64,000 nt of DNA from Dehalococcoidia bacterium (GTDB lineage Bacteria; Chloroflexota; Dehalococcoidia; Bin125), in assembly GCA_963422755.1 (NCBI GenBank), contig OY730488.1. One strand, given 5' to 3'. A model generated the notes under the pieces. It worked only from the letters and a program-made list of their open reading frames with translations, did no database searches and was not told the DNA's origin. The position numbers and the translations under genes are program-made. This document shows positions 21,257-64,000 of this stretch, in pieces (the first letter of the stretch is position 1; every line of letters begins with the position of its first letter).

Positions 21257-22516
21257 ATGAGCGACATTGACGCGACGGCAGGCAAGTACCTGCGCGACCA
21301 GTACGCCATCATCGGCGTCGGCGAGACCACATACACGCGCGGATCGGGGATGACCACCCGCGCGCTCGGCACCTGGGCGATCAAGAACGCAATGGACGAC
21401 GCCGGCATTCCCGCTAGGGAGATCGACGGCATGATGTCGTATGCCGGCAACGATTCCACCGCCTCCACGATGCTCGCCGGCGACCTCGGCATCCGCCTCA
21501 ACTTCTATATGGACGTGCAAGGCGGCGGCTCCTCCTCGGAAGCCTTGATCGGCCTCGCGATCGGTGCGATCGAGGCGGGGATGTGCGAGACGGTTGTCGT
21601 CTTCCGCTCGATGAACGGGTTCTCGCAGGTGCGGATCGGTGGTACCGGCGCGCGCGCCTCGATGCCGGTCGGCGGCGACGCCCTGCACGGGGCCGCCTAC
21701 GGATGGTTCTCAGCGGGGCAAAACTTCTCGCCCACATTCATGCGCCACATGTACGACTACGGCACCACGCCCGAGCAAGTGGCGATGGTCAAGGTGATCC
21801 ACTCCGAGCACGCTTCGAACAACCCCAAGGCCTACTACAAGCAGCGCGTGACGGTCGAAGACGTGGTCAACTCACGCATGATCTGCAAGCCGCTGCACCT
21901 GCTTGACTGCTGCGTCGAGACCGACAACGCGACCGCGCTGATCGTGACATCGGTCGACAAGGCCTACGACTACAGGAATACGCCGGCACGTATCCTCGGC
22001 GTCGCTGGACGCGTCTGCAAACCGCGCATTGACATGCATTTCCAGCACGGTCCGATCTCGACCGTCGCCGGGCACTACATCAAAGACATCATCTACCGCA
22101 ACGCCGGCGTGGGGCCTGAGGACATCCAGTCCACTGGCGCCTACGACGCTTTCACCTTCACCTCGATGCTGCAGCTGGAGGACTATGGCTTCTGCGCCAA
22201 GGGCGAGGGCGGTGACTACGTCTCCTCGGGCATCATGCGACTCGGCAGCGAACGTCCCAACAACACCTCGGGCGGCCACCTCTGCGAGGGCTACACGCAC
22301 GGGATGAACATGATCATCGAGAACGTGCGCCAGCTGCGCGGCGAGGTCGACGACTACTGCCCAACCGACGAAGACGGCAAGAAGCAGCACACCTTCAACT
22401 ACGCCGAGCCCGCCAGCGGCGGCGGCTGCCGCCAGGTACCCGACCTCGAGATCACGCAGAATCTCGGCTGGGCGATGCCCGGCACCGGCTCGTCGCTGAT
22501 CATGCGCAAGGGATAG
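21257..22516 (+). CDS. Thiolase-like protein of the SCP-x / nonspecific lipid-transfer-protein type
   Basis: It has a thiolase fold with an active-site region (CETVVVFR) and C-terminal GGHLCEGYTHGMN. It is followed by a DUF35 gene, the usual SCP-x partner. Confidence 0.85.
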   Translation: MSDIDATAGKYLRDQYAIIGVGETTYTRGSGMTTRALGTWAIKNAMDDAGIPAREIDGMMSYAGNDSTASTMLAGDLGIRLNFYMDVQGGGSSSEALIGLAIGAIEAGMCETVVVFRSMNGFSQVRIGGTGARASMPVGGDALHGAAYGWFSAGQNFSPTFMRHMYDYGTTPEQVAMVKVIHSEHASNNPKAYYKQRVTVEDVVNSRMICKPLHLLDCCVETDNATALIVTSVDKAYDYRNTPARILGVAGRVCKPRIDMHFQHGPISTVAGHYIKDIIYRNAGVGPEDIQSTGAYDAFTFTSMLQLEDYGFCAKGEGGDYVSSGIMRLGSERPNNTSGGHLCEGYTHGMNMIIENVRQLRGEVDDYCPTDEDGKKQHTFNYAEPASGGGCRQVPDLEITQNLGWAMPGTGSSLIMRKG

Positions 22517-22556
22517 CCGCCGTTCTCCATCTCGACCCAACGAACAGGAGCCGACC

Positions 22557-23093
22557 ATGCCGCAGGGCGAATATCTCGGGATGACCCTGACCGTCCTCGA
22601 CCTCGACAACGAAAACCTGGCCTACTTCCAGCACTGCTCCGACCACGATTTCCACCTCCAGCAGTGCGCCAACGCCGACTGCGGGTTGATCCGCTATCCG
22701 CCGGGCACCGCCTGCCCGTGGTGTTCAGGACGCGAGTTCAACTGGGTCCCCGTCGACGCGCGCGGGACTGTGCACTCCTACGGCGAGGTCCACCACGCGA
22801 TCCAGCCCGCCTTCCGCGAGCGCGCGCCGTATATGATCCTGCTCGTCCAGCTCGACACACAAGCCGGCGTACCCAGCGAGCATGAGGCGCTACGCGTCGT
22901 CGGCAATCTCGTGGACGCCAACGGCGACTTCGCCAAGCCTGAGCTGGTCAAGCGGGTCGGCATCGGTTCGCGCATGCGGATGGTCTTCGCCGATGTCGCC
23001 GACGGTCTGGCGCTGCCGCACTGGACACTCGACGAAGAGGCGGCGCAACCCTCAGCCCCCTGGCGCTACGCACAAGAAGTCAACGGCGTCTAG
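22557..23093 (+). CDS. DUF35 Zn-ribbon/OB-fold protein (BbsA/ChsH2-C-like partner of the SCP-x thiolase)
   Basis: The rubredoxin-like CxxC...CxxC (CANADCG...CPWCSG) is followed by an OB-fold. Confidence 0.8.
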   Translation: MPQGEYLGMTLTVLDLDNENLAYFQHCSDHDFHLQQCANADCGLIRYPPGTACPWCSGREFNWVPVDARGTVHSYGEVHHAIQPAFRERAPYMILLVQLDTQAGVPSEHEALRVVGNLVDANGDFAKPELVKRVGIGSRMRMVFADVADGLALPHWTLDEEAAQPSAPWRYAQEVNGV

Positions 23094-38018: not shown

Positions 38019-38812
38019 TCGGGCGCAGCGCCTGCCGAAATCGCGGAGCCGTCCCGTTCGAGTCGGTAGCGGTCGTAGTAGCCCTCGGGCGCATTCTGCA
38101 TGAAGGCGGAGATCTGCTCGTTGCCCTCGGCGTCCCATTGACGCACCGCGAGCAGCGAGCGCCAGGCGGCGACCACGATCGTCGCGCTGTCGTGCGACTC
38201 CGGCAGACCTGCCAGCGGCACGACGGCCAGCCGCTCGCGGAATTGATGCAGGCTCTGCATCGCCCCCAGCAGACCGGATGGATCGTCGGCGCCTGTGTAC
38301 GTGTCAGGGTCGTAGTAGATCACCACACCGCCACGTTCCAGCAGCGGCAGCAGCTCGAACGGTTCGGGGACATCCTCATCATCAGGTAGGTAGACTTTGG
38401 CATCCACGCTCTCCGACGGCTGCGGACCAGAGGTCGGCGGGAAAGAGTTGTACGCGTCAAAGGCGTCGCCCTCCTCCAGATGTCGGCGCCCCTGATCGGG
38501 GAACGTCTGCACGCCCTCGACTGTGAGCACGTCTTCGGGCGGGAAGAGCAACTGCATGGCGAAGACGGCGATCATCGCCACCAGCAGTCCGCCCAGCAAC
38601 GCCACCGACATACGCGGCAGGCCGAAGATCGTGCCGCGGCGCTGCGGTGTCGCGTCCGAGCTGCTCGAACGTCGCCCCCCGCCTCGACCGCGGTCATCAG
38701 CCTCTGCAGCCGGGGCAGTATCTGCACGGCGGCCGACTTCCGACTCGCCGCCCTCGCCCGCCGGTCGCGCGGGCCGACGACGCCGGCGGCGACGTGGTGA
38801 CTGTTGGCTCAT
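38015..38812 (-). CDS. DUF3105-like membrane-anchored protein, a tandem paralog
   Basis: An Arg-rich cytoplasmic N-terminus is followed by a TM helix and an extracytoplasmic domain with the related motifs HLEEGDAFDAYNSFPPTSGP and LERGGVVIYY. Confidence 0.55.
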   Translation of the reverse strand: MSQQSPRRRRRRRPARPAGEGGESEVGRRADTAPAAEADDRGRGGGRRSSSSDATPQRRGTIFGLPRMSVALLGGLLVAMIAVFAMQLLFPPEDVLTVEGVQTFPDQGRRHLEEGDAFDAYNSFPPTSGPQPSESVDAKVYLPDDEDVPEPFELLPLLERGGVVIYYDPDTYTGADDPSGLLGAMQSLHQFRERLAVVPLAGLPESHDSATIVVAAWRSLLAVRQWDAEGNEQISAFMQNAPEGYYDRYRLERDGSAISAGAAPE

Positions 38813-40062
38813 TGCGCGACTCCCGCCGCCACCAGCGCGCCCAACTCTTCACTGCTGAGCCCAAGCTCGCCGCAGACAATCTCGGCCGTGTGCTCGCCTA
38901 GTAGCGGCGCCCGTCGACCGTGCGACCACGGCGTCTCGCTCAATACGTACGGCGCGCCGGGAAATGTCACCGTACGCTCCTGCTCCTCATGCTCGATCTC
39001 GACGAAGAACCCGCGCGCCCGCCAATGCTCATCGGCGAGACACTCGTCGGGCGTGCGAACAATGCTCCAGGCCGCACCAGCGGCTTGTGCGCCAGCGTAT
39101 ATCTCCTCAGCATCATGCGCTGCGATGAACTCGGCAATATCCGCCAGCATCATCTTCACAGTCGGTTGACTCAACCCCAGCTGACGCTTGCGTCCATCCA
39201 ACAGCTCCAAGTCAGACAGATTCGCCCCCATCCCCTTCGACTGGATGAACGCCACCAGCGCCAGCCAGCTCGCCTCCGAGCGGGGCATGCCGAAGATATT
39301 GATCAGGCGACCGTCAGCGGTCGGATACTGCCACGGCTCGGTCGGCTGCGGACCGGCATGCCGGCCCGCCTGGCGAATGAGCGGGTGTCGCTCGTACAGC
39401 GCCCACGGCGCCGACGACTCGATCGTGAATCCCATGCACTCGTGCATCGAAACATCGAGGTGCTGCCCCAAACCGCTCTGCTGGCGCTCATAGAGCGCCG
39501 CACAGACACCCGTGGCTGCAAAGTAGCCAGCGATGTGTGAGGCATGATGTTCGGTCGGGCGAATCGGCGGCGCAGCGGGAATGCTGTCGTAGCCACAGCT
39601 CCCCATTGGCCCGCCGAGCGCCAGTCCGACCGCGTCCGACCAGGCGAAATCGCGCCACGGCCCGGTCTGTCCGAACGGCGTCAAACTGAGTACCACCAGC
39701 TGTGGTAGGTGATCAGCGAGCGCCACAGGATCGAGCGGGCGGCCACGGCCTGGCTGCCACGTCTCGAGGACGACATCCGCCCTCTCGGCGAGCTGCAAGA
39801 ACAACTCGATTCCGTCCTCGGCGTGCAAATCAAGCGCCACCGAGCGTTTTCCAGCGGCGTAGTGCCACCAGTAGAGGCTGCGCTCGGGCCCCGGCTGGTC
39901 GTCGAGGAACGGCCCCGTGCGTCGCCCGATGTCGCCGCCGGGCGGTTCGATCTTGATCACATCCGCGCCCAGGCCGGCCAGCAGCTTGCCCGCGAAGTGC
40001 CCCTTCGGATCCGAGCAATCCAGCACCCGAACGCCGTCCAACGCCCCACGTGAGTCAGTCAT
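38809..40062 (-). CDS. Family III CoA-transferase (CaiB/BaiF)
   Basis: An internal Met (MTDSRGALDGVRVLDCSDPKGHFAGKLLAGLGADVIKIEP) starts the protein. The longer 484-aa ORF is an N-terminal over-extension. Confidence 0.85.
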   Translation of the reverse strand: MTDSRGALDGVRVLDCSDPKGHFAGKLLAGLGADVIKIEPPGGDIGRRTGPFLDDQPGPERSLYWWHYAAGKRSVALDLHAEDGIELFLQLAERADVVLETWQPGRGRPLDPVALADHLPQLVVLSLTPFGQTGPWRDFAWSDAVGLALGGPMGSCGYDSIPAAPPIRPTEHHASHIAGYFAATGVCAALYERQQSGLGQHLDVSMHECMGFTIESSAPWALYERHPLIRQAGRHAGPQPTEPWQYPTADGRLINIFGMPRSEASWLALVAFIQSKGMGANLSDLELLDGRKRQLGLSQPTVKMMLADIAEFIAAHDAEEIYAGAQAAGAAWSIVRTPDECLADEHWRARGFFVEIEHEEQERTVTFPGAPYVLSETPWSHGRRAPLLGEHTAEIVCGELGLSSEELGALVAAGVAQ

Positions 40063-40064
40063 CG

Positions 40065-41321
40065 TTAGCCCAACGCTCCGTTGGCCGTGAGCTCGGCGAT
40101 GCGCTCGCCACTCAGGCGCAGGAGCTCGCCGAACACGTAGCTGTTCGCCTCGCCCAGCACTGGACCAGGCCGATCGCGGTGCGCCGGCGTGCGTGAAAAG
40201 CGAAGCTGCAGACCATCCGTCAGATGTTCGCCGATCACTGGATGCTCGCGCGCCACCGTCCACTCACGCGCCTGCATCTGCGGATCATGGACCACGAGAT
40301 CGACGCCATTCTGCACGACGCCAGATGGAACATCGGCGTCCTGCAACCGACGCATCAGCGCGCGACCGTCCTGCCCCGCCGTCCAGGCGCCGATCAGCTC
40401 GTCCAGCTCGTCCTGATGCCGCAGACGCGACGGCAGTGTCGCAAAGCGAGCGTCACTGCGCCAGTGCGGATGATCGCTCACCGCGCAGAATGCCTCCCAC
40501 TCCGCGTCGGACGTGCAGCTGATCATGATCCAGTTGTCATGCCCGGCCGTTGGATAGGTATTGTGCGGTACCGCTTGCGGCCAGACCGCGCGGTTGCCCG
40601 GCGGATTGCCAGTGTCGCGATAGCGCCGTCCATTGACCGTGAAATCGAGCGTTGCGGGCCCAGTCAGTGCCATCCCGGTCTCAACCTGTGAGAGATCGAT
40701 CCACTGTCCCTGCCCGGTCTCGCGGCGGTGATGCAGCGCTGCCACAATTGCCGCCGCCGCCGTGAATCCCGCCATATGATCGAGGTACGAATATCCCCAG
40801 CCGGCTGGCTCGGGCGCATCGGGCAGCCCTGACATCGCGGTCAGACCGCTGAGTGCCTGCGCGGTTGGCCCCCACGTCGAGTAGTCGCGCTGCGGCCCAG
40901 AGTGCCCGAAGCCCGAGAGCGAGGTGTAGATGATCTGCGGGTTCTCGTCGCGCTGCTCGTCGTAGCTCAGCCCCCAGCTCTCGAAGACGCGTGAGGAGTA
41001 GTTTTCGACCACGACGTCGGAGACGCGAATCAGCCGCTTGATCAGGTCGAGGCCGTCGGGATGGCGCGCATTGACGGTGATCGAGCGCTTGCTGCGGTCC
41101 AGCCAGTTGAACATCGCGCTCGAGTTCGGCGGATCGAACCCGCCCGGATGCGGACGGCCGAAGCGGATCGAGTCGAGTGTCTGCTCATTCTCGACACGGA
41201 TCACTTCCGCACCGAGATCGCCCAACAGCCGCGTACAGGTCGGCCCGGCGACGATCCATGTGAAGTCGACCACGCGGACACCCGCAAGAGGTGGCTGCGC
41301 GGCTGGCTCGGGTTCCGTCAT
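40065..41321 (-). CDS. Family III CoA-transferase (CaiB/BaiF), tandem with 38809..40062
   Basis: The N-terminus is LAGVRVVDFTWIVAGPTCTRLLGDLGAEVIRVEN, and the stop lies 2 nt before the next gene's start. Confidence 0.85.
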   Translation of the reverse strand: MTEPEPAAQPPLAGVRVVDFTWIVAGPTCTRLLGDLGAEVIRVENEQTLDSIRFGRPHPGGFDPPNSSAMFNWLDRSKRSITVNARHPDGLDLIKRLIRVSDVVVENYSSRVFESWGLSYDEQRDENPQIIYTSLSGFGHSGPQRDYSTWGPTAQALSGLTAMSGLPDAPEPAGWGYSYLDHMAGFTAAAAIVAALHHRRETGQGQWIDLSQVETGMALTGPATLDFTVNGRRYRDTGNPPGNRAVWPQAVPHNTYPTAGHDNWIMISCTSDAEWEAFCAVSDHPHWRSDARFATLPSRLRHQDELDELIGAWTAGQDGRALMRRLQDADVPSGVVQNGVDLVVHDPQMQAREWTVAREHPVIGEHLTDGLQLRFSRTPAHRDRPGPVLGEANSYVFGELLRLSGERIAELTANGALG

Positions 41322-41345: not shown

Positions 41346-41750
41346 TCAGGCCGGCTCGAACTTGGGCAGCGTGAACTCGTCGGTGAGATCATCAAACGCG
41401 ACCTGTACCCGCATCCCGACGCGGATGTCGGCCGCCGCAACGTTGATCAGGTTCGTGTTCATGCGCGGACCCTCGTCCAGCTGCACCACAGCCAACGTGT
41501 ACGGGATTTCTTCCTTCCACGAAGGATGGTAGAGCTGGTGCATCCGCACCCATGAGTAGACCTCACCGCCGCCGGCCGACTCCCGCCACTCCCAGTCAGT
41601 CGACCAATCCTTGTAGCAGCGGTCGCTGTAGGGGAACTGGTAGTGGTCCGCTGAAGGAAAGTACTGCAGCAGCAGTTTGTGCGCCTTGAGCGCATCGAAG
41701 AACGGCTGCGTCTGTGCGTCTGGATTCGGAAGCGGCTTTTCGTATGCCAT
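41346..41750 (-). CDS. DUF35 Zn-ribbon/OB-fold protein
   Basis: It has an OB-fold C-terminal domain and is placed directly downstream of the SCP-x-type thiolase. This is the second thiolase--DUF35 pair in the window. Confidence 0.75.
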   Translation of the reverse strand: MAYEKPLPNPDAQTQPFFDALKAHKLLLQYFPSADHYQFPYSDRCYKDWSTDWEWRESAGGGEVYSWVRMHQLYHPSWKEEIPYTLAVVQLDEGPRMNTNLINVAAADIRVGMRVQVAFDDLTDEFTLPKFEPA

Positions 41751-41762
41751 GGGTACAGAGTC

Positions 41763-42953
41763 CTAGTTGGCGTGCGGCGAGAGGATCAGCGTGCCGTGAG
41801 TGTCCAGTGTGCCGCCGTTACCCGAGCAGAGCACGATGTCATGCTGCTCGACCTGGCGGTCCTCGCCCGAGCCGCGCGCCTGGATCACCCCCTCCGAGAG
41901 CGGCGTCATGCCCCACATGTAGTAGGACGACAACTGTCCGCCGCCGGTGTTAATCAACGGCAGCTCAGCCTCAGGATCAGCCGGATCCTCAGGGTACAGA
42001 CCGATCGCCTCGCCGGGCTTGGCCAAACCGTAATCCTCGATCGTGCGCAACACGGTGTACGTGTAGCAGTCGTAGAACTCACAGATATCGACGTCCTCCG
42101 GTCCGACGCCGGCCATCCGGTACGCAGTCTCGCCAGCGATGGTCGCACCCGAAGTGGTGTAAGTCTCGACCTCAGCGTGTGGCAGATTGCCAGGATGTCC
42201 CTGCCCCATCCCCCAGATGTAGGCCGGGGCCGACGGCAGGTCGCGCGCGCGTTCGGCCGTGGTCACGATCGTGCAGACCGCGCCGTTGGAGACCAGGCAA
42301 CAATCGAGCAGATGAAACGGATCCACAATCCAGCGGGAGTTGTGGTAGTCCTCGAGCGTGAGCGGCTGGCGCATCGTCGCATGTGGATTGTCAACGGCGT
42401 AGCGGCGCTGCGTCACCGAGACGCGGCCGAGGTCGTTGTTGGTGATCCCGTAACGCTCCATGTAGCGCCGAGCGGCGAGCGCGTATGAGGTGTTCGCTCC
42501 GTAGAAGCCGAAGGCCGGCATCAGCGAGGCCATGCCCGTCGGACCACGCCGTCCCGCGCCACCATAGGCGGCGCCAGCCGATCCACCCTGCTGCAGCGGC
42601 GCATCGGAGAAGACACAGGCAACATAGTTGGCCATCCCATGATGGACCGCCATCGCCGCGAAGTGCACCATCGCCGACGCCGTCGCGCCGAACGAGTTCA
42701 TATGGTTGAGCAGCCGCAAATTGCGCAACCCCAGATAGTTCTGCAGCGGAATGCTGATCCCCGTGCCCATCATCCCTGTGATGCCAGGGTTGATCAGCAG
42801 TCCGTCGAGATCGTCCTTCTGCAGCCCGGCGTCCTCGACCGCCATCCTGATCGCCTCGCCCGCAAACCAGGATGCGTCGTGCCCGTATACCTTGCCCATC
42901 TCCGTAATGCCGAGTCCGCAGACCGCCGTCTGCCCTCGAATAGGATCACTCAT
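41763..42953 (-). CDS. Thiolase-like protein of the SCP-x / lipid-transfer type
   Basis: It has a thiolase fold with C-terminal NTGGGQLSSYYMWG. Confidence 0.85.
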   Translation of the reverse strand: MSDPIRGQTAVCGLGITEMGKVYGHDASWFAGEAIRMAVEDAGLQKDDLDGLLINPGITGMMGTGISIPLQNYLGLRNLRLLNHMNSFGATASAMVHFAAMAVHHGMANYVACVFSDAPLQQGGSAGAAYGGAGRRGPTGMASLMPAFGFYGANTSYALAARRYMERYGITNNDLGRVSVTQRRYAVDNPHATMRQPLTLEDYHNSRWIVDPFHLLDCCLVSNGAVCTIVTTAERARDLPSAPAYIWGMGQGHPGNLPHAEVETYTTSGATIAGETAYRMAGVGPEDVDICEFYDCYTYTVLRTIEDYGLAKPGEAIGLYPEDPADPEAELPLINTGGGQLSSYYMWGMTPLSEGVIQARGSGEDRQVEQHDIVLCSGNGGTLDTHGTLILSPHAN

Positions 42954-51566: not shown

Positions 51567-54419
51567 ATGTCTCACACACACGAAATCCTCGACACGATCG
51601 ATGAAGCTGCGCCCACCCTGCCCAGCGACACCGCCGTTGAAGAGCGCCCCCAGACGCATCCCCCCCCCCGCCCGCTTCGCGAAGCGCTGATTGGCCGCTA
51701 CTTCACCCAGCCCGGCGTCGACGTCTACGAGCAGATTGAGTGGACCTACCGCTCGGCCCAGATCTCGACCGACAGCGGCGACACGATCTTCGAGCAGCAC
51801 GACATCGAAACGCCCGCTTTCTGGTCCCAGGCCGCGACCAACATCGTCGCATCCAAGTACCTCTGGGGTAAAATGGACACACCCCAACGCGAACGCTCGA
51901 TCAAGACGCTGATCGACCGCGTGGTCGAGACCATCACTCGCTGGGGCCGCGACGGCGGCTACTTCACCGACGCCGCGGCGTCGTCAGCCTTCTCGCAGGA
52001 ACTGCGCTACCTGCTCGTCAACCAATACGCCGCATTCAACTCGCCCGTCTGGTTCAACGTCGGCATCGAAGAGCAGCCACAGTGCTCGGCCTGCTTCATC
52101 AACTCCGTCGAGGACACGATGGAGTCAATCATGGACCTCGCCACGCGTGAGGCGCTGCTCTTCAAATGGGGCAGCGGCACCGGCTCCAACCTGTCAACCT
52201 TGCGCTCGAGCCGCGAGGCGCTCACCGGCGGCGGACACGCCTCCGGCCCAGTCTCGTTCATGCGCGGCTACGACGCCTTCGCCAACGTGATCAAGTCGGG
52301 CGGCAAGACTCGCCGCGCCGCCAAGATGATCATCCTCAACGCCGACCACCCTGACATCATGGAGTTCATCCACTCCAAGGCCGCAGAAGAACGCAAGGCC
52401 TGGGCCCTGATCGATGCCGGCTACGACGGCTCGCTCAATGGCGACGCCTACTCATCGGTCTCATTCCAGAATGCCAACCACTCCGTGCGCGTCAGCGACG
52501 ACTTCATGCGCGCGGTCGAAACCGACAGCATCTGGACCACCCGTGAAGTCGTCAGTGGCGAAGTGGTCGAACGCCTCCCAGCCAGCGACATCCTCCGCGC
52601 CGTCGCCGCGGCCACGCACCAGTGCGGCGACCCCGGGATCCAGTTCGACACCGTCATCAACGACTGGCACACCTGCGCCAACACCGACCGCATCTACGCA
52701 TCCAACCCCTGCTCCGAGTACATGTTCCTCGATGACACCGCCTGCAATCTCGCCTCGCTCAACCTGCTCAAGTTCTACGATCTCGATACCCACACGTTCA
52801 ATGCCGACGCCTTCAGCCACGCCTGCCGCGTCATGATCACCGCCCAGGAGATTCTCGTCTCGAACGCTTCGTACCCCGCGAAGCTGATCGAGGAACGATC
52901 AAATCAATTCCGCACGCTGGGACTGGGCTACACCAACCTCGGCGCGCTGCTGATGGCGCGCGGGCTGCCCTACGACTCGCAAGACGGCCGCGCCCTCGCC
53001 GCGACCGTGACCGCGCTGATGACCGGCGAGGCGTACCACCAGTCGGCCCGCATCGCCCAACGCGTCGGCCCGTTCGCCGGCTTCGACGCCAACCGCGACC
53101 CCTTCCTCAACGTCATGCGCAAGCACCAGGCGGCCGTCGAACGGATCGACGGGATCGAGACCGTCCCCGTTCCGCTCCGCGAGGCCGCCGCGACTGCCTG
53201 GCGTCAGGCGATCGCCTTGGGACAGCAGCACGGATACCGCAATGCGCAAGCCACCGTCCTTGCGCCGACCGGCACCATCTCGTTCATGATGGACTGCGAC
53301 ACCACCGGCGTGGAGCCCGACATCTCGCTGGTCAAGTACAAGAACCTCTCCGGCGGTGGCGGCTTCAAGATCGTCAACCGCACGGTCCCCGCCGCGCTGC
53401 GTCGACTCGGCTACCACCAACAGGCGATAGAGCGCATCAGCGCCCACATCGACGAGAGCGGCACGATCGAGGGCGCGCCAGATCTTGATCCCGCGCATCT
53501 CTCCGTCTTCGACTGCGCCTTCAAACCAGCCAACGGAACGCGCAGCATCGCCCCGCTCGGACACATCCGCATGCTCGGTACCGTCCAACCCTTCCTCTCG
53601 GGCGCCGTCTCCAAGACCGTCAACGTACCCGAGCACACCTCCGTCGATGAGATCATGCAGACCTACATCGAAGCCTGGAAACTCGGCGTCAAGGCGGTCG
53701 CGATCTACCGCGACAACTCCAAGCGCGTGCAACCACTCGAAACCAGCACAGGGACTCAGTCGGTACCAACTCCAGCACAGACGCAGCTGGAGATGTCAAA
53801 GGTCACGGACGACCCCGTCGTAGTCGACGCCGCCGGCGGGCCGCCGGGATATCGCCGCCACCGCCTCCCAGACGAGCGCAGCGCTATCAATCACAAGTTC
53901 ACGATCGGCGAACACGAGGGCTATCTCACCATCGGCGAGTACGAAGACGGTAGCCCAGGCGAAGTGTTTGTCCACATTTCCAAGGAAGGGACGATCGCCT
54001 CCGGTCTGATGGACGGCGTCGCCGCGCTGACCTCCGTGGCGCTGCAGTCTGGCGTGCCGCTCTCGACGCTGATCAAGAAGTTCGCCCACACCCGCTTCGA
54101 ACCGAGCGGATGGACGCGCAATCGCGACATCCCGCAGGCCGACTCGATCCTCGACTACATCTTCCGTTGGATGGGCCTGCGCTACCTCAACAATGACGAT
54201 GCCGACAGCATCGCCCAGCAAGTGCGCATGGCCATCATCCAGAACGAAGACGCCGTAGCCGATCAGACCACTGGGCCGAAGCCAATCACGGCGTCAGCCC
54301 AACCCAGCTTCCAGCACCAGCTCGACGCCCCGCTCTGCGCGAACTGCGGCTCGCTCATGGTGCGCGCCGGCTCCTGCCACCGCTGCATGAACTGCGGCGA
54401 GACCTCTGGCTGCAGCTAA
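51567..54419 (+). CDS. nrdJ: Vitamin B12 (adenosylcobalamin)-dependent ribonucleoside-diphosphate reductase, class II
   Basis: The 950-aa protein has the class II RNR active-site region NPCSEYMFLDDTACNLASLNL and a C-terminal zinc ribbon (CANCGSL...CHRCMNCG). Confidence 0.9.
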   Translation: MSHTHEILDTIDEAAPTLPSDTAVEERPQTHPPPRPLREALIGRYFTQPGVDVYEQIEWTYRSAQISTDSGDTIFEQHDIETPAFWSQAATNIVASKYLWGKMDTPQRERSIKTLIDRVVETITRWGRDGGYFTDAAASSAFSQELRYLLVNQYAAFNSPVWFNVGIEEQPQCSACFINSVEDTMESIMDLATREALLFKWGSGTGSNLSTLRSSREALTGGGHASGPVSFMRGYDAFANVIKSGGKTRRAAKMIILNADHPDIMEFIHSKAAEERKAWALIDAGYDGSLNGDAYSSVSFQNANHSVRVSDDFMRAVETDSIWTTREVVSGEVVERLPASDILRAVAAATHQCGDPGIQFDTVINDWHTCANTDRIYASNPCSEYMFLDDTACNLASLNLLKFYDLDTHTFNADAFSHACRVMITAQEILVSNASYPAKLIEERSNQFRTLGLGYTNLGALLMARGLPYDSQDGRALAATVTALMTGEAYHQSARIAQRVGPFAGFDANRDPFLNVMRKHQAAVERIDGIETVPVPLREAAATAWRQAIALGQQHGYRNAQATVLAPTGTISFMMDCDTTGVEPDISLVKYKNLSGGGGFKIVNRTVPAALRRLGYHQQAIERISAHIDESGTIEGAPDLDPAHLSVFDCAFKPANGTRSIAPLGHIRMLGTVQPFLSGAVSKTVNVPEHTSVDEIMQTYIEAWKLGVKAVAIYRDNSKRVQPLETSTGTQSVPTPAQTQLEMSKVTDDPVVVDAAGGPPGYRRHRLPDERSAINHKFTIGEHEGYLTIGEYEDGSPGEVFVHISKEGTIASGLMDGVAALTSVALQSGVPLSTLIKKFAHTRFEPSGWTRNRDIPQADSILDYIFRWMGLRYLNNDDADSIAQQVRMAIIQNEDAVADQTTGPKPITASAQPSFQHQLDAPLCANCGSLMVRAGSCHRCMNCGETSGCS

Positions 54420-56750: not shown

Positions 56751-57122
56751 ATGGAACCACGCGACACACGACTGGAACTGATCGCTGAGATCGTCGAGGA
56801 CGAGCGGCAGCTCGATGGCAGTCGACACATCGAACTCGTCGGCGCTGTGCAACCGGCGGACCTCGCGCTGCGACTGGTCGTCACCCGCGACGGCGTGGTG
56901 CAGGAAGCGGAGCTACATCTGAAACGCGGAGAAACCTGGCACGTGGTGACGTTCGACCGTACCGAGCCCAACCACCCCACCGACATGCCCGACGACGACC
57001 GCAGCGGCCTATTCACCATGAAACTGCACGCGGACGGCGTTGCACTCAGCCTGGACCAGCGCGATGACGGAGACATCGCCCTCAGCCTGCAGCTAGAACA
57101 TACGCCGGAGGTCGGCACATGA
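56751..57122 (+). CDS. Hypothetical protein translationally coupled to cofD (ATGA overlap)
   Basis: An internal Met starts a 123-aa acidic protein whose stop overlaps the cofD ATG. The 5' part of the track ORF is antisense to the PHP gene and is spurious. Confidence 0.4.
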   Translation: MEPRDTRLELIAEIVEDERQLDGSRHIELVGAVQPADLALRLVVTRDGVVQEAELHLKRGETWHVVTFDRTEPNHPTDMPDDDRSGLFTMKLHADGVALSLDQRDDGDIALSLQLEHTPEVGT

Positions 57123-58060
57123 CGCAGGTTGCGGTTCTGGCTGGCGGCGTCGGCGCGGCGCGCTTCCTCGACGGCCTCGTCCGTGTGTCGCCGCCCGCAG
57201 ACATCACTGCAATCGTCAATGTCGGCGACGACATGGAGTGGGCCGGGCTCCACATCTCGCCCGACCTCGACACGATCACGTACACGCTGGCCGACCTGGT
57301 CAATCCCGAAACTGGCTGGGGCCTGCGCGGCGAGTCGCGGCGCACGCTGGAGCGTCTCGCCGATCTCGGTGGACCTGACTGGTTCATGATCGGCGATCTC
57401 GACCTCGCCACGCACCTCTACCGCACACACCGACTACGCAACGGCGACACGCTCTCAGCGATCACACGTGACCTGACGCAACGCCTCGGGCTGGAGTGCG
57501 CCATCATCCCCGTCACCGATGACCGCCTGCGCACAGTGGTGAGCACCGACGCCGGGTCGCTCGCGTTTCAGGACTACTTTGTCCGACGCCGCGCCGCTGA
57601 CGCCGTCCGCTCACTCCGCTTCGATGGCGCTGAGACTGCGCGTCCCGCACCCGGCGTGCTGGACGCCCTCAGACAAGCCGATGTGATCGTGATCGCGCCG
57701 TCGAATCCCTTCCTCAGCATCGATCCGCTGCTCAGCGTACCCGGCCTCCGCGACGCCGTGACAGACAGCCATGCGCCTGTTGTCGCCGTCAGTCCGATCA
57801 TCGGCGGCCAGGCCGTCAAGGGTCCCGCCGCCGACATCCTGCAGTCGCTCGGGCACGATGTGTCCGCGCTCGGCGTGGCGCGCCTCTATGCGGCGCTTGC
57901 TGATGTCTTCATCCTCGACGATCAAGACGCCGCGCTCGCCACGGACATCGAGTCGGAAACGGGCCTGCGGGTCAGCGTGATGCCGACGCTGATGACCGAT
58001 CTCGACGCAAAGACGGCGCTCGCAGCCGGCAGCCTGGAAGCGGCTCGCTATGTCGGCTGA
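57119..58060 (+). CDS. cofD: 2-phospho-L-lactate transferase (F420 biosynthesis; CofD / FbiA)
   Basis: The CofD family is identified by the N-terminus VAVLAGGVGAARFL, by VNVGDD and by the C-terminal region. Confidence 0.85.
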   Translation: MTQVAVLAGGVGAARFLDGLVRVSPPADITAIVNVGDDMEWAGLHISPDLDTITYTLADLVNPETGWGLRGESRRTLERLADLGGPDWFMIGDLDLATHLYRTHRLRNGDTLSAITRDLTQRLGLECAIIPVTDDRLRTVVSTDAGSLAFQDYFVRRRAADAVRSLRFDGAETARPAPGVLDALRQADVIVIAPSNPFLSIDPLLSVPGLRDAVTDSHAPVVAVSPIIGGQAVKGPAADILQSLGHDVSALGVARLYAALADVFILDDQDAALATDIESETGLRVSVMPTLMTDLDAKTALAAGSLEAARYVG

Positions 58061-58742
58061 GCGCAGCGAGCTGGTCGCAGTTGTGCCCGTCCGAGGATTG
58101 CCCGCAGGCAAGCGACGACTCGCGGCGCTGCTCAACGCCGACGAACGCAACACACTCGTGCTCGCCATGTTGGACGACGTCGTCGCGGCACTGTCGGCTG
58201 CCTCGCTCGTCGACCGCGTCGTCATCGCCTCCCGCGATGCCGCCGCCCGTAGCGAGGCCGCCCGTCTCGGCGTCGAATTTCTCGACCAGACCGATCTGCG
58301 GCTTGGCTACAACCGCGCGGTCACCTGCGCGCAGAAGTCCTACCGCAGCTCAGCAGCACTCCTGGTCGTCCCCGCTGACGTACCGCTGATCACACCCGAC
58401 GCTGTCGACCTGTTCGTGTCAGCCGCACCCTCGGGCGCGGCGGTCATCGTGGCGCCAGCGCACAACGGCGGTACCAACGCTCTGCTGTTGCGCCCACCTG
58501 GCATCATCGCGCCACAGTTCGGGCCGTCATCGGCACGGGCGCATGAACAGTCAGCCGCCGCGGCCGGCGAGGCCGGCGTGCCGTTCCGAGCAGTCCACAT
58601 CGAAGTCTTCGCGTTCGATCTCGACACGCCGGCAGATCTGCGCTGGCTCGAAGAGACCTTGCCGCAGCTGCCTGACGAGATCGCGCTGAATTCACGGCGA
58701 TGGTTGGCAGCGCGGGATGTCAGCGCCCGTGCCTACCGGTAG
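58050..58742 (+). CDS. cofC: 2-phospho-L-lactate / PEP guanylyltransferase (F420 biosynthesis; CofC / FbiD)
   Basis: It has an MobA-like nucleotidyltransferase fold (AVVPVRGLPAGKRRL). It overlaps the cofD stop by 11 nt. Confidence 0.8.
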   Translation: MSAERSELVAVVPVRGLPAGKRRLAALLNADERNTLVLAMLDDVVAALSAASLVDRVVIASRDAAARSEAARLGVEFLDQTDLRLGYNRAVTCAQKSYRSSAALLVVPADVPLITPDAVDLFVSAAPSGAAVIVAPAHNGGTNALLLRPPGIIAPQFGPSSARAHEQSAAAAGEAGVPFRAVHIEVFAFDLDTPADLRWLEETLPQLPDEIALNSRRWLAARDVSARAYR

Positions 58743-60004: not shown

Positions 60005-61432
60005 CTACCGCAGCGGCGCTCGCGATCCCTGTGCGCTGTACACCTTATTCATCGCCGCCCGGACGACGATGCTCGCTGATCCATTGAGCGCCGGTCGCGC
60101 TTCGCCCGCGCCTGCTGGCATCGGCGCCCCCGCGGGCAGCCCATACTGCGGTACCCGCGCGCTCCGAATCACCGGCCGTATGACGATCACCATCACCAAC
60201 AGCGCCAGGACCACGAACGACATCGGTGGAAACAGTGTTTCCATGGTCAGCCATTGCGCGACGATGCCCAGCGGCAGCCCCACCGCCTGCGCGATTCCCA
60301 TGCCGAGGAAGATCAGCCCCATGATCCGTCCCCGCATCTCGTTCGGCGTCTCATAGGCGAGCGTCGAATTTGCCGTCACCATCGCGATCGACATCCCAAC
60401 GCCGAGCAGGAAATTGCCGGCCATGGCATTGATCGCCGTCGCTGGGTTGGTGAAGACGATGAAACCCAGCGCCATCACGATCACTCCGCCTGCGGTCAGG
60501 ACCCCCTTGCGCTCGACCCACGAGAACCGCACCAGGATCAGCGACGCGATCATCGCGCCAGCGCCCCAGAAGACCGCGATGACGCTGAACTCGGACCATG
60601 TCGCGCCCACCACAGTCGTCACCCACTGCGGCCCCAGCGTCCCCGTCGGCGGCATGATCAAGGACATCATCAGCACCACGATCAGCACGGTCCACAGCAC
60701 GACCGGCTTCGAGCGGGCGTACTGCAGCCCCGCGTTGATGTCGCGCAGCGCCCCGAGAGGATCGTTGCCGCGCTTGGCCAGATTTGCCCGGTGCTCGGCC
60801 GAGAACACCGTGCGATACGACATCATCGCCAGAATCAGCACCTCGCCGAGGTGCCCGAACGACGAGATCGCAAACACCGCACCGTGACCGAGACTGTCGA
60901 TCAGCAGCCCTGAAGCGAAGATCGCAAAGGGCATCGCAAACTGCATCGCCGCTGAATTGAGCGCAATCCCCGCCGGCGTCAGACGCGGACCCAGAATCTC
61001 CGGCGTGATCGCCTGGCGCGTCGGGCCATCGATCGCATGCGCTGACGAGGCGATGATCGTGAGCAGGAAGAAGATGCCGATCTCGAGCACGCCGCCAGAA
61101 CCGGTCCACATCAGCACGGCGATGCCGATATTGCAGATGAAGGCCAGCGACTGCGTCGCCATCAACAGCCGACGTCGGTCGAAGCGGTCGGCCAGTGCGC
61201 CACCGAACAGCCCGAAGCCAATCATCCCCAACCCGCGAATCGTCCCGATCGCGCCGACCATGATGATCTCAACATCATCCGACGCGACGAGTTGAATCCA
61301 GGCAATCGACGTGACGAACTGCAACGGCATCATCGACTGACCGAGGATGAAACCGCTGAGCAGCAGACGGAACTCACGCAGACGCAGCGGCTCGATCATG
61401 CCTGGGCGTGATGCAGCAGACACGACGCTCAT
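60005..61432 (-). CDS. MFS transporter (EntS/YbdA-like)
   Basis: It has 12 predicted TM helices and the MFS motif GALADRFDRRRLL. Confidence 0.85.
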   Translation of the reverse strand: MSVVSAASRPGMIEPLRLREFRLLLSGFILGQSMMPLQFVTSIAWIQLVASDDVEIIMVGAIGTIRGLGMIGFGLFGGALADRFDRRRLLMATQSLAFICNIGIAVLMWTGSGGVLEIGIFFLLTIIASSAHAIDGPTRQAITPEILGPRLTPAGIALNSAAMQFAMPFAIFASGLLIDSLGHGAVFAISSFGHLGEVLILAMMSYRTVFSAEHRANLAKRGNDPLGALRDINAGLQYARSKPVVLWTVLIVVLMMSLIMPPTGTLGPQWVTTVVGATWSEFSVIAVFWGAGAMIASLILVRFSWVERKGVLTAGGVIVMALGFIVFTNPATAINAMAGNFLLGVGMSIAMVTANSTLAYETPNEMRGRIMGLIFLGMGIAQAVGLPLGIVAQWLTMETLFPPMSFVVLALLVMVIVIRPVIRSARVPQYGLPAGAPMPAGAGEARPALNGSASIVVRAAMNKVYSAQGSRAPLR

Positions 61433-62058
61433 GGCTCTCGCTTCGCTGCCTGGAGCACGCTGTGCCGTCGGCCTTGACGCACTTTCGACACCTGCTGTGG
61501 TCCGAAGATGTCACCCAGCCGCCGCTGCAGATACCGTCGCAGCCCGTTGACCGCTACCACAACCAACAGCCCGCCGTCGTCGTCGAGCGCATCGTGCGCG
61601 CCCAGCAGGAGCGCATCCAACGCGTCGTTCCCTGCCTGCGCCGGCAGATTCGACACGACGAGATCAAACTGCTCGCCGCCGAGCTGACATACCCCATCGC
61701 TGAGCGCCACTCGCGCGTTCCCCAACGCGAGCGACGCGACGTTCTGCCCAGCCGCCTCCACTGCCCGGATATCGCTGTCGACCATCGTTACCTGCACTGT
61801 CGGCCAGGCGGCCGCCAGCGGCGCGCCGATCGCTCCGTAGCCGCAACCGAGATCGAGCGTGCGCTGCGCTGGCGGAAGCGAAACCAGCTCGCCCAGCAGC
61901 ATCGCGGTACCTTCGTCGAGCGCGCGCGCCGAGAACAGTCCATGCCGCGACGTCAGCTCCAGTTCACGTCCGCCGAACGCAACGCAGACGCGCGGATGCT
62001 CCGCCAGCCGCGTCCGCAGGTTCTCCAGACGGTCCTGCCCCTCTCCCGCCGCCATCAC
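61429..62058 (-). CDS. Class I SAM-dependent methyltransferase (RsmC/RlmG small-domain-like)
   Basis: It has LDLGCGYGAIG and NLP motifs. Its stop overlaps the MFS gene's start. Confidence 0.7.
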   Translation of the reverse strand: MMAAGEGQDRLENLRTRLAEHPRVCVAFGGRELELTSRHGLFSARALDEGTAMLLGELVSLPPAQRTLDLGCGYGAIGAPLAAAWPTVQVTMVDSDIRAVEAAGQNVASLALGNARVALSDGVCQLGGEQFDLVVSNLPAQAGNDALDALLLGAHDALDDDGGLLVVVAVNGLRRYLQRRLGDIFGPQQVSKVRQGRRHSVLQAAKREP

Positions 62059-62366
62059 AAAGTCTCAATCCGCTCCGAAACCGGCGTGAAGCAGTCCATG
62101 TGCTCCGGATCCATACGGCGCACGTTGCCGGGACAGATACACGTCCGCTTGCCAGCCGTCGAACCCGCCACCGTGATCTGAATGTGCGACGGATGGGAGA
62201 ACTTGGCAGCAGCAGCGCCCGCTTCGAGCGGCGCTGGCGCATAGCTGTGCGGAATCTTGCCGACCACATCACCTGAGGTGCGCGCCATACCTCGCAGCAT
62301 GCGCTCGACCCGTTCGCGGGTCGGCGGTACCAGCGGCAAACCATCGCCGAATCCGCGCTCGAGCAT
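62055..62366 (-). CDS. Short paralog (about 103 aa) of the adjacent 374-aa protein. It matches only that protein's N- and C-terminal segments and may be an internally deleted remnant.
   Basis: GFGDGLPLVPPTRERVERML aligns with GITDGLPVSPPTRDRVDRML, and SHPSHIQITVAGSTAGKRT aligns with ADPSFIQISVAGSHAGKWT of the upstream gene. The start was chosen at an internal Met just after the upstream stop. Confidence 0.4.
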   Translation of the reverse strand: MLERGFGDGLPLVPPTRERVERMLRGMARTSGDVVGKIPHSYAPAPLEAGAAAAKFSHPSHIQITVAGSTAGKRTCICPGNVRRMDPEHMDCFTPVSERIETL

Positions 62367-62374
62367 GCGGCGGC

Positions 62375-63499
62375 TCAGGTGCGAATCCGCGCGGATGGCG
62401 GCACGAACGTCGACGGCTGCTGCTGCGTCGGGTCGCCGTCTCCGAAGATGCCCTGGTAGATGCTCGTCCACTTGCCGGCGTGGCTGCCCGCCACGCTGAT
62501 CTGGATGAAGGACGGATCTGCCACCTTCGACAGCGGCATATCCAGCTGCGCTTCGCTCAGGCCATACTTCTCGGGCGCGTACTCGTTGATCCCGCCGCCC
62601 AGTGTCGGCGAGGCCAGGCGTTCACGCAGCGGCAGCGCCGTGAACTCCATGATCGCCTCGCGAATGTTGGCTTTCGACCAACCGTCGGCGCGGTACACAT
62701 CCGCGTGCTCGGGGCTCACCACGAACATCGTCGGCGTCACCTGACCGCGCGGCTTCAGCACCTGTTGGAAGGCCATCGCAATCGAGCCGGTCAACGCCCG
62801 CGCCGTGCGGCTGGTCTGGTCGATGCAAACGCGCGGCCCGCCGGTGATCGGAATCAGCGAAACCACGCTGTCCGCTCGCTCATAGCCGTGCTCAACGTGG
62901 TACGGCTCCCACGGCGAGTAGTCCTCGTCCTCCGCGTAGCTCAGCGTCCACTTGTGTCCGCCACCCTGGATGGCCTGCTCGATCTCGCCCGGCACAGCGC
63001 CTCCAACGTTGCGCAGCATCAGCCGCAGGGCGCGCCCCAGCGTCGAGTTGGCGCGATTGCCCTGTCCTAGCGCATTTAAGCCCCAGTTCATGCCAATTCG
63101 CTCGCGCTCCGGCCCGTTGACCAGCATCATCGGGGCCAGCCCGGCAGTCGTGGCGATCGAGCCGTGCAACGGGAACTGCCCACCAGCGGCCGCCTCCACA
63201 GCGGCCAGGATCGCTGGGAAGTACTCGGGCTTTGCGCCAGCCATCACGGCGTTGATCGCCGCCTTTTCGACAGTCAGCGGAGCCAGATTCGGCGGGAGAG
63301 AGGCAATCACCTGCTGCGGATGCTGGAAATCGGACGGTGCCGCCGCCAACATTCGATCGACGCGGTCGCGCGTCGGCGGCGACACGGGCAACCCATCCGT
63401 GATGCCCTGGTCGAACATGAACTCATAGACATCGTCGTGATCGGCAATCTCGATCACGCGCGCCAGCGCGCTACGGCCGTCAGGGTCTGTGGACGCCAA
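62375..63499 (-). CDS. Conserved hypothetical protein of 374 aa with no recognised family
   Basis: It is a long ORF with codon bias typical of the region. It lies between the UGSC-type selenoprotein gene and its own truncated paralog. Confidence 0.55.
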   Translation of the reverse strand: MASTDPDGRSALARVIEIADHDDVYEFMFDQGITDGLPVSPPTRDRVDRMLAAAPSDFQHPQQVIASLPPNLAPLTVEKAAINAVMAGAKPEYFPAILAAVEAAAGGQFPLHGSIATTAGLAPMMLVNGPERERIGMNWGLNALGQGNRANSTLGRALRLMLRNVGGAVPGEIEQAIQGGGHKWTLSYAEDEDYSPWEPYHVEHGYERADSVVSLIPITGGPRVCIDQTSRTARALTGSIAMAFQQVLKPRGQVTPTMFVVSPEHADVYRADGWSKANIREAIMEFTALPLRERLASPTLGGGINEYAPEKYGLSEAQLDMPLSKVADPSFIQISVAGSHAGKWTSIYQGIFGDGDPTQQQPSTFVPPSARIRT

Positions 63500-63565: not shown

Positions 63566-64000
63566 TCAGTCGACGGGTGCCATCAGCGTGTCTAGGATCT
63601 CGTCGATGAAGCGCTCGGCGTGTTCGTGCATCTCCGCGTTGGTGCGGTCCTGCATCGGATGCGGAATGAAGACGCGGCGCACCTCTTCCAAGCCCAACCG
63701 CTCGGCCTGATGGCTGGCGGCCTTGATGAACTCAGAAGTGGCGACAAACACGCTGGGCTTGCCCTGCAGCTCGAAGAATACGGTGTCGTGCACACTGCAC
63801 GTCGTGCAGGATCCTCAATCAGCCAGCGCTTCGATGACGAAGTCGCACTCCTCCAGAATCGCTTGCTTGATCGGCTCGGGCGCCGGCTTGGCGACGGTGG
63901 GCTTCATGTAGCGGCGCGTCTCGACGCCCGGTGCACGCTCGTGCAGGAGCTGCTCGAGACGGTCCAGGAAGACGTCGCCACGCGGCTTCGAGATGTCGAG
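63566..64000 (-). CDS. UGSC-family (seleno)protein, partial. An in-frame TGA at 63815..63817 on the minus strand gives the motif A-D-U-G-S-C-T-T-C. The 5' end lies beyond the window.
   Basis: The minus-strand reading frame is continuous from the window edge through the TGA into track ORF 63566..63793: ...ECDFVIEALAD-U-GSCTTCSVHDTVFFELQGKPSVFVATSEF...MAPVD*. UGSC is the motif that names the family. Confidence 0.55.

Follow-up and report, generated by a model that had tools for sequence, protein, structure and literature searches.

A very probable UGSC-family selenoprotein gene at the edge of a Dehalococcoidia contig, its in-frame UGA and the hairpin that follows it

The UGSC-containing protein was described by Zhang & Gladyshev in 2008 as a selenoprotein family that ranks with the most abundant in aquatic metagenomes, commoner in non-marine samples and characterized by a UxxC motif in which U is selenocysteine (Sec); the Global Ocean Sampling data contained 255 Sec versus 21 Cys forms (PMC2398784). 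By a 2016 count the family was present in 26 sequenced organisms, and a 2026 review tabulates it with the NCBIfam profile NF041046. Here we analyzed a 64,000-nucleotide stretch of contig OY730488.1 from a Dehalococcoidia bacterium (GenBank assembly GCA_963422755.1), hereafter the window, at whose edge a minus-strand reading frame interrupted by a single TGA very probably encodes a member of this family, with the UGA recoded as Sec. The gene is a typical member of the catalogued family, and the finding as such is already known: the motif position, the size, the conserved UGA, the predominance of Sec over Cys and the environmental bacterial source are all shared with the described protein (PMC2398784), and nothing essential differs. 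The window copy is without its first 32 codons, its clade carries additional copies of a partner domain downstream, and its predicted fold is flavodoxin-like, in contrast to the 'Trx-like' fold guessed in the literature. The gene and its recoded codon are positioned as follows.

63566..64000, minus strand: UGSC-family selenoprotein gene (very probable), 3' 82% (codons 33-176 plus stop), from translation, NF041046 and PF24696.
63815..63817, minus strand: UGA codon, very probably Sec94 of the full protein and first residue of the U-G-S-C-x-x-C-x-x-H-D site, from the conserved TGA.

A first-pass annotation, made from the letters of the window, had proposed that the frame is open from position 64000 across this TGA into a listed 75-aa open reading frame (ORF), with the junction EALAD-U-GSCTTCSVHD. 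Translation of the minus strand bears out both statements: the TGA is the only interruption between 64000 and the stop codon at 63566..63568, and the peptide across it reads ...EECDFVIEALAD*GSCTTCSVHD.... Taken alone, such an open frame means little in a GC-rich window: at 65% GC, chance yields ~200 frames that run across a TGA with 50 or more codons to either side, and a coincidental open frame was indeed the alternative that the same annotation had named. The joined 144-aa translation, searched with U written as C, nevertheless matches the NF041046 profile, 'UGSC family (seleno)protein', with 149.8 bits against a cutoff of 125 (E 5.4e-44, profile positions 8-146 of 147), in line with the family membership that had been suggested, and the Pfam family PF24696 (UGSC) with 129.8 bits against a cutoff of 25. 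The part before the TGA alone scores 50.7 bits on positions 8-68 of NF041046 and the part after it 61.7 bits on positions 77-146. When all TGAs of the window were examined for a coding-type GC content at the three codon positions (GC1/GC2/GC3) on both flanks, gene junctions and antisense frames being excluded, only the TGA at 63815..63817 qualified. Relative to the homologous locus L009, for example, synonymous and non-synonymous differences stand at 12:2 upstream and 18:3 downstream of the TGA; such ratios show purifying selection on both flanks. The profile match, the two halves matching one profile, the GC signature and the synonymous excess on both sides raise this frame above chance, and the coincidental frame is discarded.

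The gene is truncated by the window edge, as had been noted, and could be completed from contig L008, one of two ~2.34-Mb contigs that match the sequence of the 75-aa ORF exactly. Without gaps, L008 matches the final 10.4 kb of the window at 99.3% identity, and it supplies the missing 32 N-terminal codons and the start. The full gene in L008 consists of an ATG preceded by the Shine-Dalgarno sequence GGAGAGG, 93 codons, the TGA and 82 codons, and gives a protein of 176 aa with Sec94, within the ~150-180 aa of the single-domain UGSC family. The listed 75-aa ORF (63566..63793) begins at an internal GTG, the Val codon at position +8 after the UGA, within the hairpin described below, and has no ribosome-binding context of its own. 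A homolog search with UGSC retrieved 7,388 proteins, the top matches being mostly ~92-aa fragments that end at ...EALAD because gene callers stop at the Sec codon; the C-terminal part retrieved only 10 proteins. Thousands of UGSC database entries are fragments of this kind, and in every metagenome-assembled genome (MAG) examined (L001-L008, L089) the gene is called as two 'hypothetical proteins' of 93 and 75 aa. The terminator at 63566..63568 is TGA in the window and TAG in the relatives L001-L006, around 10529-10531 (L005 having ~81% nucleotide identity), so that in the window the same mRNA would have one UGA as Sec and one UGA as stop, 82 codons apart.

Conservation of the UGA was assessed on the 80 best species-representative genome loci, 80 metagenome contigs and 8 close relatives. 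Wherever the site could be read, in 168 loci altogether (80/80, 80/80 and 8/8), the homologous codon is TGA, the genome loci covering Dehalococcoidia, Tepidiformaceae, Acidimicrobiia and other Actinomycetota, Alpha-, Gamma- and Deltaproteobacteria, and Binatia. Among 26 diverse members, D93, U94, G95, S96, C97, C100, H103, D104, H146, P147, Q149 and D150 are invariant. The JGI protein P0001 (L090:187-708) shows a 'W' at the site, where its DNA has TGA. A Cys form at the Sec position was found in one protein, P0003, and scanning the metagenomes with the motif gave 0 hits for the version with a Cys codon and at least 120 for the TGA version, the positive control, which agrees with the reported 255 Sec to 21 Cys forms. 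Orthologs thus keep the in-frame UGA, and some homologs have Cys opposite it, as is expected of a bacterial selenoprotein gene.

The mRNA directly downstream of the UGA, GGAUCCUGCACGACGUGCAGUGUGCACGAC, contains the two overlapping inverted repeats that the first-pass annotation had pointed out as a possible hairpin of the selenocysteine insertion sequence (SECIS) type, CUGCAC/GUGCAG and GUGCA/UGCAC. They correspond to two mutually exclusive structures:

63787..63801, minus strand: putative bacterial SECIS core hairpin CGUGCA-GUG-UGCACG, from frozen synonymous sites, conserved pairing and agreement with published bacterial SECIS features.
63795..63809, minus strand: second hairpin, (C)UGCAC-GAC-GUGCA(G), 94% pairable and probably incidental, which cannot form together with the SECIS core.

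A codon-by-codon count over the genome loci reveals that synonymous variation is ordinary along the UGSC gene and drops sharply from codon +5 to codon +10 downstream of the UGA:

Codon +5 (Thr-coding subset): ACG 51, ACA 1.
Codon +6, Cys: TGC 80/80; compare Cys +3, TGC 60 and TGT 20.
Codon +7, Ser: AGT 79/79; compare Ser +2, all six codons in use.
Codon +8, Val: GTG 72/72.
Codon +9, His: CAC 72, CAT 8.
Codon +10, Asp: GAC 77, GAT 3.

These frozen codons delimit the segment CG-UGC-AGU-GUG-CAC-G, which folds as CGUGCA-GUG-UGCACG, a stem of 6 bp under a GUG loop (or of 5 bp under A-GUG-U), with the loop starting 19 nt after the UGA. In an ungapped alignment of 81 sequences (76 of them distinct), five of the 6 core pairs are formed in all 76 distinct sequences and the loop-closing pair 31-35 in 75/76; the sole variable core pair, 27-39, is G-C in 68, G-U in 6 and A-U in 2. 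The 80 metagenome loci, picked with a pattern that leaves the synonymous positions of the SECIS free, form the five innermost pairs in 80/80, with pair 27-39 as G-C in 59, G-U in 19 and A-U in 2, and show two kinds of compensatory change in the core, one of which, seen in one sequence, replaces A-U by G-C at the pair that closes the loop. Loop positions 1-2 are GU in all 80 despite a change of the encoded residue (AGT 71, TGT 8, GGT 1). These comparisons show CGUGCA-GUG-UGCACG to carry an RNA-level constraint, which defines it as the SECIS element.

The apex of the E. coli fdhF SECIS, UGCA-GGUC-UGCA at ~18 nt after the UGA, is very like that of UGSC in both sequence and spacing. In the bSECISearch model, a bacterial SECIS has an apical loop of 3-5 nt with a G followed by a U (N1-G-U-N-N2) and an upper stem of 5-8 bp (PMC13188914); the range applied here for the distance from UGA to loop was 16-37 nt. 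The UGSC hairpin, with its GUG or A-GUG-U loop, 6 bp and 19 nt, agrees with these values, and like the consensus element it lies within the coding sequence directly after the UGA; it differs in being very short and in having no conserved lower stem. The core has a calculated energy of -7.4 kcal/mol, the local 45-nt minimum free energy (MFE) fold that includes it -10.6, and an 8-bp actinobacterial version -12.4. An apex-motif search was preferred to a covariance model, which would mostly learn the UGSC coding sequence, and found one match in the window, at the UGSC site. No Rfam family was found at the gathering score in the whole window, nor at E<=10 in 63650..64000.

Only one of the two repeats pointed out in the first-pass annotation therefore stands as a SECIS candidate, the GUGCA/UGCAC repeat in its extended form. 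The CUGCAC/GUGCAG repeat was rejected: its loop lies 11 nt from the UGA, below the range of 16-37 nt, its 94% pairability is explained by a 5' arm made up of Cys-Thr codons with ordinary TGC/TGT usage, and in L077/L083 it is disrupted (C.A) by a change that is compensated in the GUGCA/UGCAC hairpin. Likewise rejected was UCCUGCA...UGCAGGG, the long stem in the MFE fold of a single sequence, as only 35% of its cells pair among the 76 distinct sequences, below shuffles.

In 72/80 genome loci UGSC is directly preceded by a partner gene in the same orientation, and in other genomes this cassette is accompanied by the machinery for Sec decoding. ARAGORN detected 27 tRNA genes in 1.63 Mb of UGSC loci, 10 of which are tRNA-Sec genes adjoining the cassette. 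The sel genes adjoin UGSC in 8/80 genome loci and in at least five metagenome contigs; selA, selB and tRNA-Sec flank the cassette in these 8 other genomes, which belong to two phyla, and selD does so in six of them. In Sulfitobacter sp. F26169L (L054:889-8821) the order is selA (579 bits), selB (282 bits), tRNA-Sec, partner, UGSC and an oxidoreductase-SelD fusion, and in an actinobacterial MAG it is selD, selA, selB, tRNA-Sec, partner and UGSC; the sel genes of both score above the curated cutoffs. The islands are located as follows.

L054:889-8821; L065:404-6510; L046, L056, L062, L069, L073, L083, L093, L120, L133, L149: sel-UGSC islands, Alphaproteobacteria and Actinomycetota.

They constitute independent genomic evidence that the UGA of the family is a Sec codon, and they suggest that UGSC is a principal client of the Sec machinery in the organisms that bear them.

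Structure prediction gives UGSC a flavodoxin-like α/β fold, not a thioredoxin-like one, in which both halves form one domain and Sec94 is placed at the end of a β-strand, ahead of a helix. A search of the PDB sequences with the UGSC profile returned nothing at E<=10, and the comparisons did not place UGSC among thioredoxin-fold proteins. The first-pass description of a thiol-disulfide-type protein is accordingly kept for its chemistry, which is plausible, and given up for the thioredoxin-like fold it implies. The recurrent similarity of UGSC lies elsewhere, with the selenoprotein B models: GrdF is matched by 17/26 members, GrdB by 15/26, the generic 'selenoprotein B' by 3/26 and GrdH by 1/26. 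The GrdB/GrdF-type matches always fall on profile positions ~331-428, the last ~95 positions and the Sec-bearing part, and no unrelated family is matched by more than 4 of the 26. Together with the UxxC(xxC) motif and the length after Sec (~82-90 residues), this recurrence argues for a remote shared ancestry of the Sec-bearing domain. Judged from the profiles, UGSC is not a member of the GrdB/PrdB family and would be at most a distant relative of its Sec domain.

The partner is a protein of ~520-560 aa in its long form, which starts with a thioredoxin-fold thiol-disulfide oxidoreductase domain followed by ~350 residues of an uncharacterized domain. ResA, StoA, MauD or thioredoxin models are matched by up to 29/54 partner members (best E 1.7e-10), the C-x-T-C motif of the partner aligns with the thioredoxin active site, and the proteins are named TlpA, redoxin or thioredoxin-like in their sources. 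A PDB search with the partner gave a weak thioredoxin match at the N-terminus only. In the organism of the window the conserved partner is located just beyond position 64000. The UGSC-partner linkage is strong but not universal. A fusion of UGSC to a conserved domain, 'Unknown_1', has been mentioned (PMC2398784), and this domain may be the partner.

SelB and Sec-tRNA(Sec), recruited through the SECIS hairpin inside the coding sequence, very probably recode the UGA, yielding a small cytosolic protein with the predicted flavodoxin-like α/β fold. For the function of this protein we tentatively propose a mechanism, which we consider a reasonable possibility, though one that could easily prove wrong. 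In a reductase of two components, UGSC would be the subunit that carries the selenol and has the catalytic or redox role: Sec94 would attack the substrate, Cys97 would resolve the adduct to a selenenylsulfide, the CxTC thioredoxin-fold domain of the partner would re-reduce this bond, and the ~350-aa domain of the partner would supply substrate binding. Such logic would follow that of the 'protein B' selenoproteins of the PrdB/GrdB type. In PrdB, Sec attacks the α-carbon of the substrate and the U151C variant is inactive (PMC11229817); an equally irreplaceable Sec would explain the rarity of UGSC Cys forms. A wider proposal is more doubtful still: UGSC and its partner may form a previously unrecognized, strictly Sec-dependent two-component reductase, distantly derived from the GrdB/PrdB Sec domain, and may be the main, perhaps only, reason why many aerobic aquatic and soil bacteria keep the Sec machinery. 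The last point is suggested by the selA-selB-selC-partner-UGSC-selD islands of Alphaproteobacteria and Actinomycetota.

The comparison with the Grd/Prd systems shows both likenesses and differences. UGSC has a weak similarity to the Sec-bearing end of the GrdB/GrdF/GrdH/PrdB profiles (TIGR01917, NF040794, NF040795, TIGR01918), a Cys three residues after Sec as in proteins of the GrdB/PrdB type, ~82 residues after Sec versus ~90 in PrdB (U151 of a 25.7-kDa protein), and a Sec that, like that of PrdB, is apparently hard to replace by Cys. Unlike GrdB it has no long N-terminal part, and unlike the Grd/Prd proteins it is not accompanied by genes for a pyruvoyl proprotein (GrdE/PrdA), GrdA, GrdC/D or PrdC; its partner is a thioredoxin-fold redoxin fused to an unrelated uncharacterized domain, and its hosts have aerobic-type genes, pyruvate dehydrogenase among them, and are not Stickland fermenters. 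A 'split GrdB', in which the partner would be the N-terminal part of GrdB, was considered and rejected, since none of the 54 partner members gave a Grd/Prd match. With the thioredoxin-, peroxiredoxin- and DsbA-like oxidoreductases (UxxC/CxxU), UGSC shares a UxxC at a strand-to-helix junction, a presumed selenenylsulfide chemistry and a thioredoxin-fold neighbour, and differs from them in fold, in the lack of any sequence relationship and in having far fewer Cys homologs.

Two explanations would remove Sec from the locus altogether. The TGA could be a genuine stop, leaving two small proteins of 93 and 75 aa or a nonsense-mutated pseudogene, as would fit the split gene calls in every MAG examined, the absence of Sec machinery from the window and the frequency of TGA-crossing open frames in GC-rich DNA. 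A nonsense mutation, however, cannot explain the same TGA in 168/168 loci of several phyla, and the two halves match adjoining parts of a single-domain profile and are predicted to fold as one domain. The excess of synonymous over non-synonymous differences on both flanks, a constrained SECIS at the proper distance, the selA, selB and tRNA-Sec genes adjoining the cassette in 8 genomes (selD in six) and the start of the supposed 75-aa gene at an internal Val codon in the hairpin, with no ribosome-binding context of its own, likewise argue against a stop, which we regard as highly improbable. Even less credit is given to a reassigned code in which the TGA is read as Trp or Gly, the reading adopted in the JGI record P0001, where the homologous TGA is translated as W: TGA ends both the UGSC gene (63566..63568) and the downstream 374-aa ORF (62375..62377), the family spans phyla with the standard code, the position is Sec or Cys in the curated family (PMC2398784), and tRNA-Sec and selA/selB adjoin the gene in other genomes. 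That the gene encodes a UGSC-family selenoprotein, with the UGA recoded as Sec, is a conclusion we hold with high confidence.

As to function, the main rival is that U94, C97, C100 and H103 bind a metal (Zn, Fe, Ni or a metalloid), making UGSC a metallochaperone, a sensor or a metal-dependent enzyme that has no selenenylsulfide cycling. The matches cited for such a site occur in at most 4/26 members and are non-significant, whereas the recurrent similarity is to reductase selenoproteins of the GrdB/GrdF type; the canonical CxTC thiol-disulfide oxidoreductase domain of the partner fits redox recycling better, and the literature places UxxC among redox motifs (PMC2398784). A metal site is therefore rated as unlikely, yet it has clearly better prospects than a thioredoxin-like fold for UGSC. 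The latter is stated in the original description (PMC2398784), is in keeping with the UxxC motif and is adopted by the 2026 review, which groups UGSC with thioredoxin-like-fold proteins; given the flavodoxin-like fold predicted for UGSC, we find it improbable.

Several observations weigh against a Sec-decoded, reductase-type UGSC at this locus. ARAGORN found no tRNA genes in the window, the Pfam search of its ~50 ORFs found no selA, selB or selD, and neither that search nor the coding-signature scan of all TGAs found a second selenoprotein in the window; tRNA-Sec, selA, selB and selD are also absent from the 10-kb flanks of the close relatives, so that Sec decoding in the window's own genome is something we infer. 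The SECIS stem is short, the core having only the energy given above, the 76-nt fold is no more stable than shuffled sequences (z -0.15), and true covariation is sparse (2 + 2 + 1 sequences) because the SECIS sequence is nearly invariant. In 8/80 loci, most of them from Tepidiformaceae (L027, L030, L031, L032, L045, L048, L050, L063), flanks of ~6 kb yielded no partner homolog. The similarity to GrdB/GrdF amounts to about 13-14.5 bits against cutoffs of 600-800, with a best E of 0.0012; it was absent from the Pfam scan, no GrdB/PrdB-like chain occurred among the PDB hits for UGSC, and no GrdE/PrdA/GrdB or other Grd/Prd signal was seen in the 54 partner-family members. A metal site would be an equally good reading of the U/C-C-C-H constellation, and the 2026 review describes the functions of bioinformatically identified selenoproteins, UGSC included, as largely uncharacterized.

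For annotation, the split 93-aa and 75-aa 'hypothetical proteins' and the record with UGA as Trp would be corrected to one selenoprotein gene. The UGSC family gains an exact SECIS consensus that spans phyla, a near-obligatory partner with a thioredoxin-fold domain and sel islands around the cassette; the predicted fold and the weak homology point to a PrdB/GrdB-like rather than thioredoxin-like chemistry, and the function is experimentally approachable in cultured hosts such as Sulfitobacter. In the UGSC literature we found no account of the SECIS consensus, the thioredoxin-fused partner, the sel islands, the flavodoxin-like fold or the GrdB/PrdB similarity, which is no proof of novelty.

Downstream of UGSC, the window carries two ORFs related to the large domain of the partner:

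62375..63499, minus strand: 374-aa ORF directly downstream of UGSC, a paralog of the ~350-aa domain of the partner that has no thioredoxin domain, from tblastn.
62055..62471, minus strand: 138-aa ORF, what is left of a further paralog of the ~350-aa domain after loss of residues ~63-314, from alignment with L005.

The 374-aa protein, which has no Pfam or NCBIfam family, was recognized by tblastn as a paralog of the C-terminal ~350 residues of the partner. The second paralog of L005, of 363 aa, aligns to 62055..62471 only by its residues 21-62 and 315-361; an intact gene of 321-363 aa occupies this place in L001-L006, and remnants of 103 and 160 aa are found in the two nearest contigs. Downstream copies of the partner domain occur only in the clade of the window. 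Opposite the genes for the methyltransferase and the decayed paralog, the plus strand has a 257-aa ORF (61408..62181) with a coding-like GC3; rather than a gene, this is most likely one of the shadow ORFs that GC-rich DNA typically produces.

Further downstream, the window encodes the methyltransferase, a major facilitator superfamily transporter, an acyl-CoA dehydrogenase and cofC/cofD. The cofD and cofC genes of F420 biosynthesis (57119..58742, plus strand), at a distance of 5 kb from UGSC, keep their synteny in every close relative, and a 950-aa ribonucleotide reductase with a TSCPD domain is encoded nearby (51567..54419, plus strand). Because this synteny is confined to the clade of the window, a functional link of either to UGSC is not evident. 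The window also holds two pairs of thiolase-like and ChsH2-type OB-fold genes (21257..23093, plus strand; 41346..42953, minus strand) and four family III CoA-transferase genes (11735..14259, plus strand; 38809..41321, minus strand), together with short-chain dehydrogenases/reductases and an acyl-CoA dehydrogenase; this repeated gene set, of a lipid or steroid side-chain catabolic type, is unrelated to UGSC. As listed, two of the CoA-transferase ORFs (38809..40263 and 40065..41321) share ~200 nt, which probably reflects a start called too far upstream.

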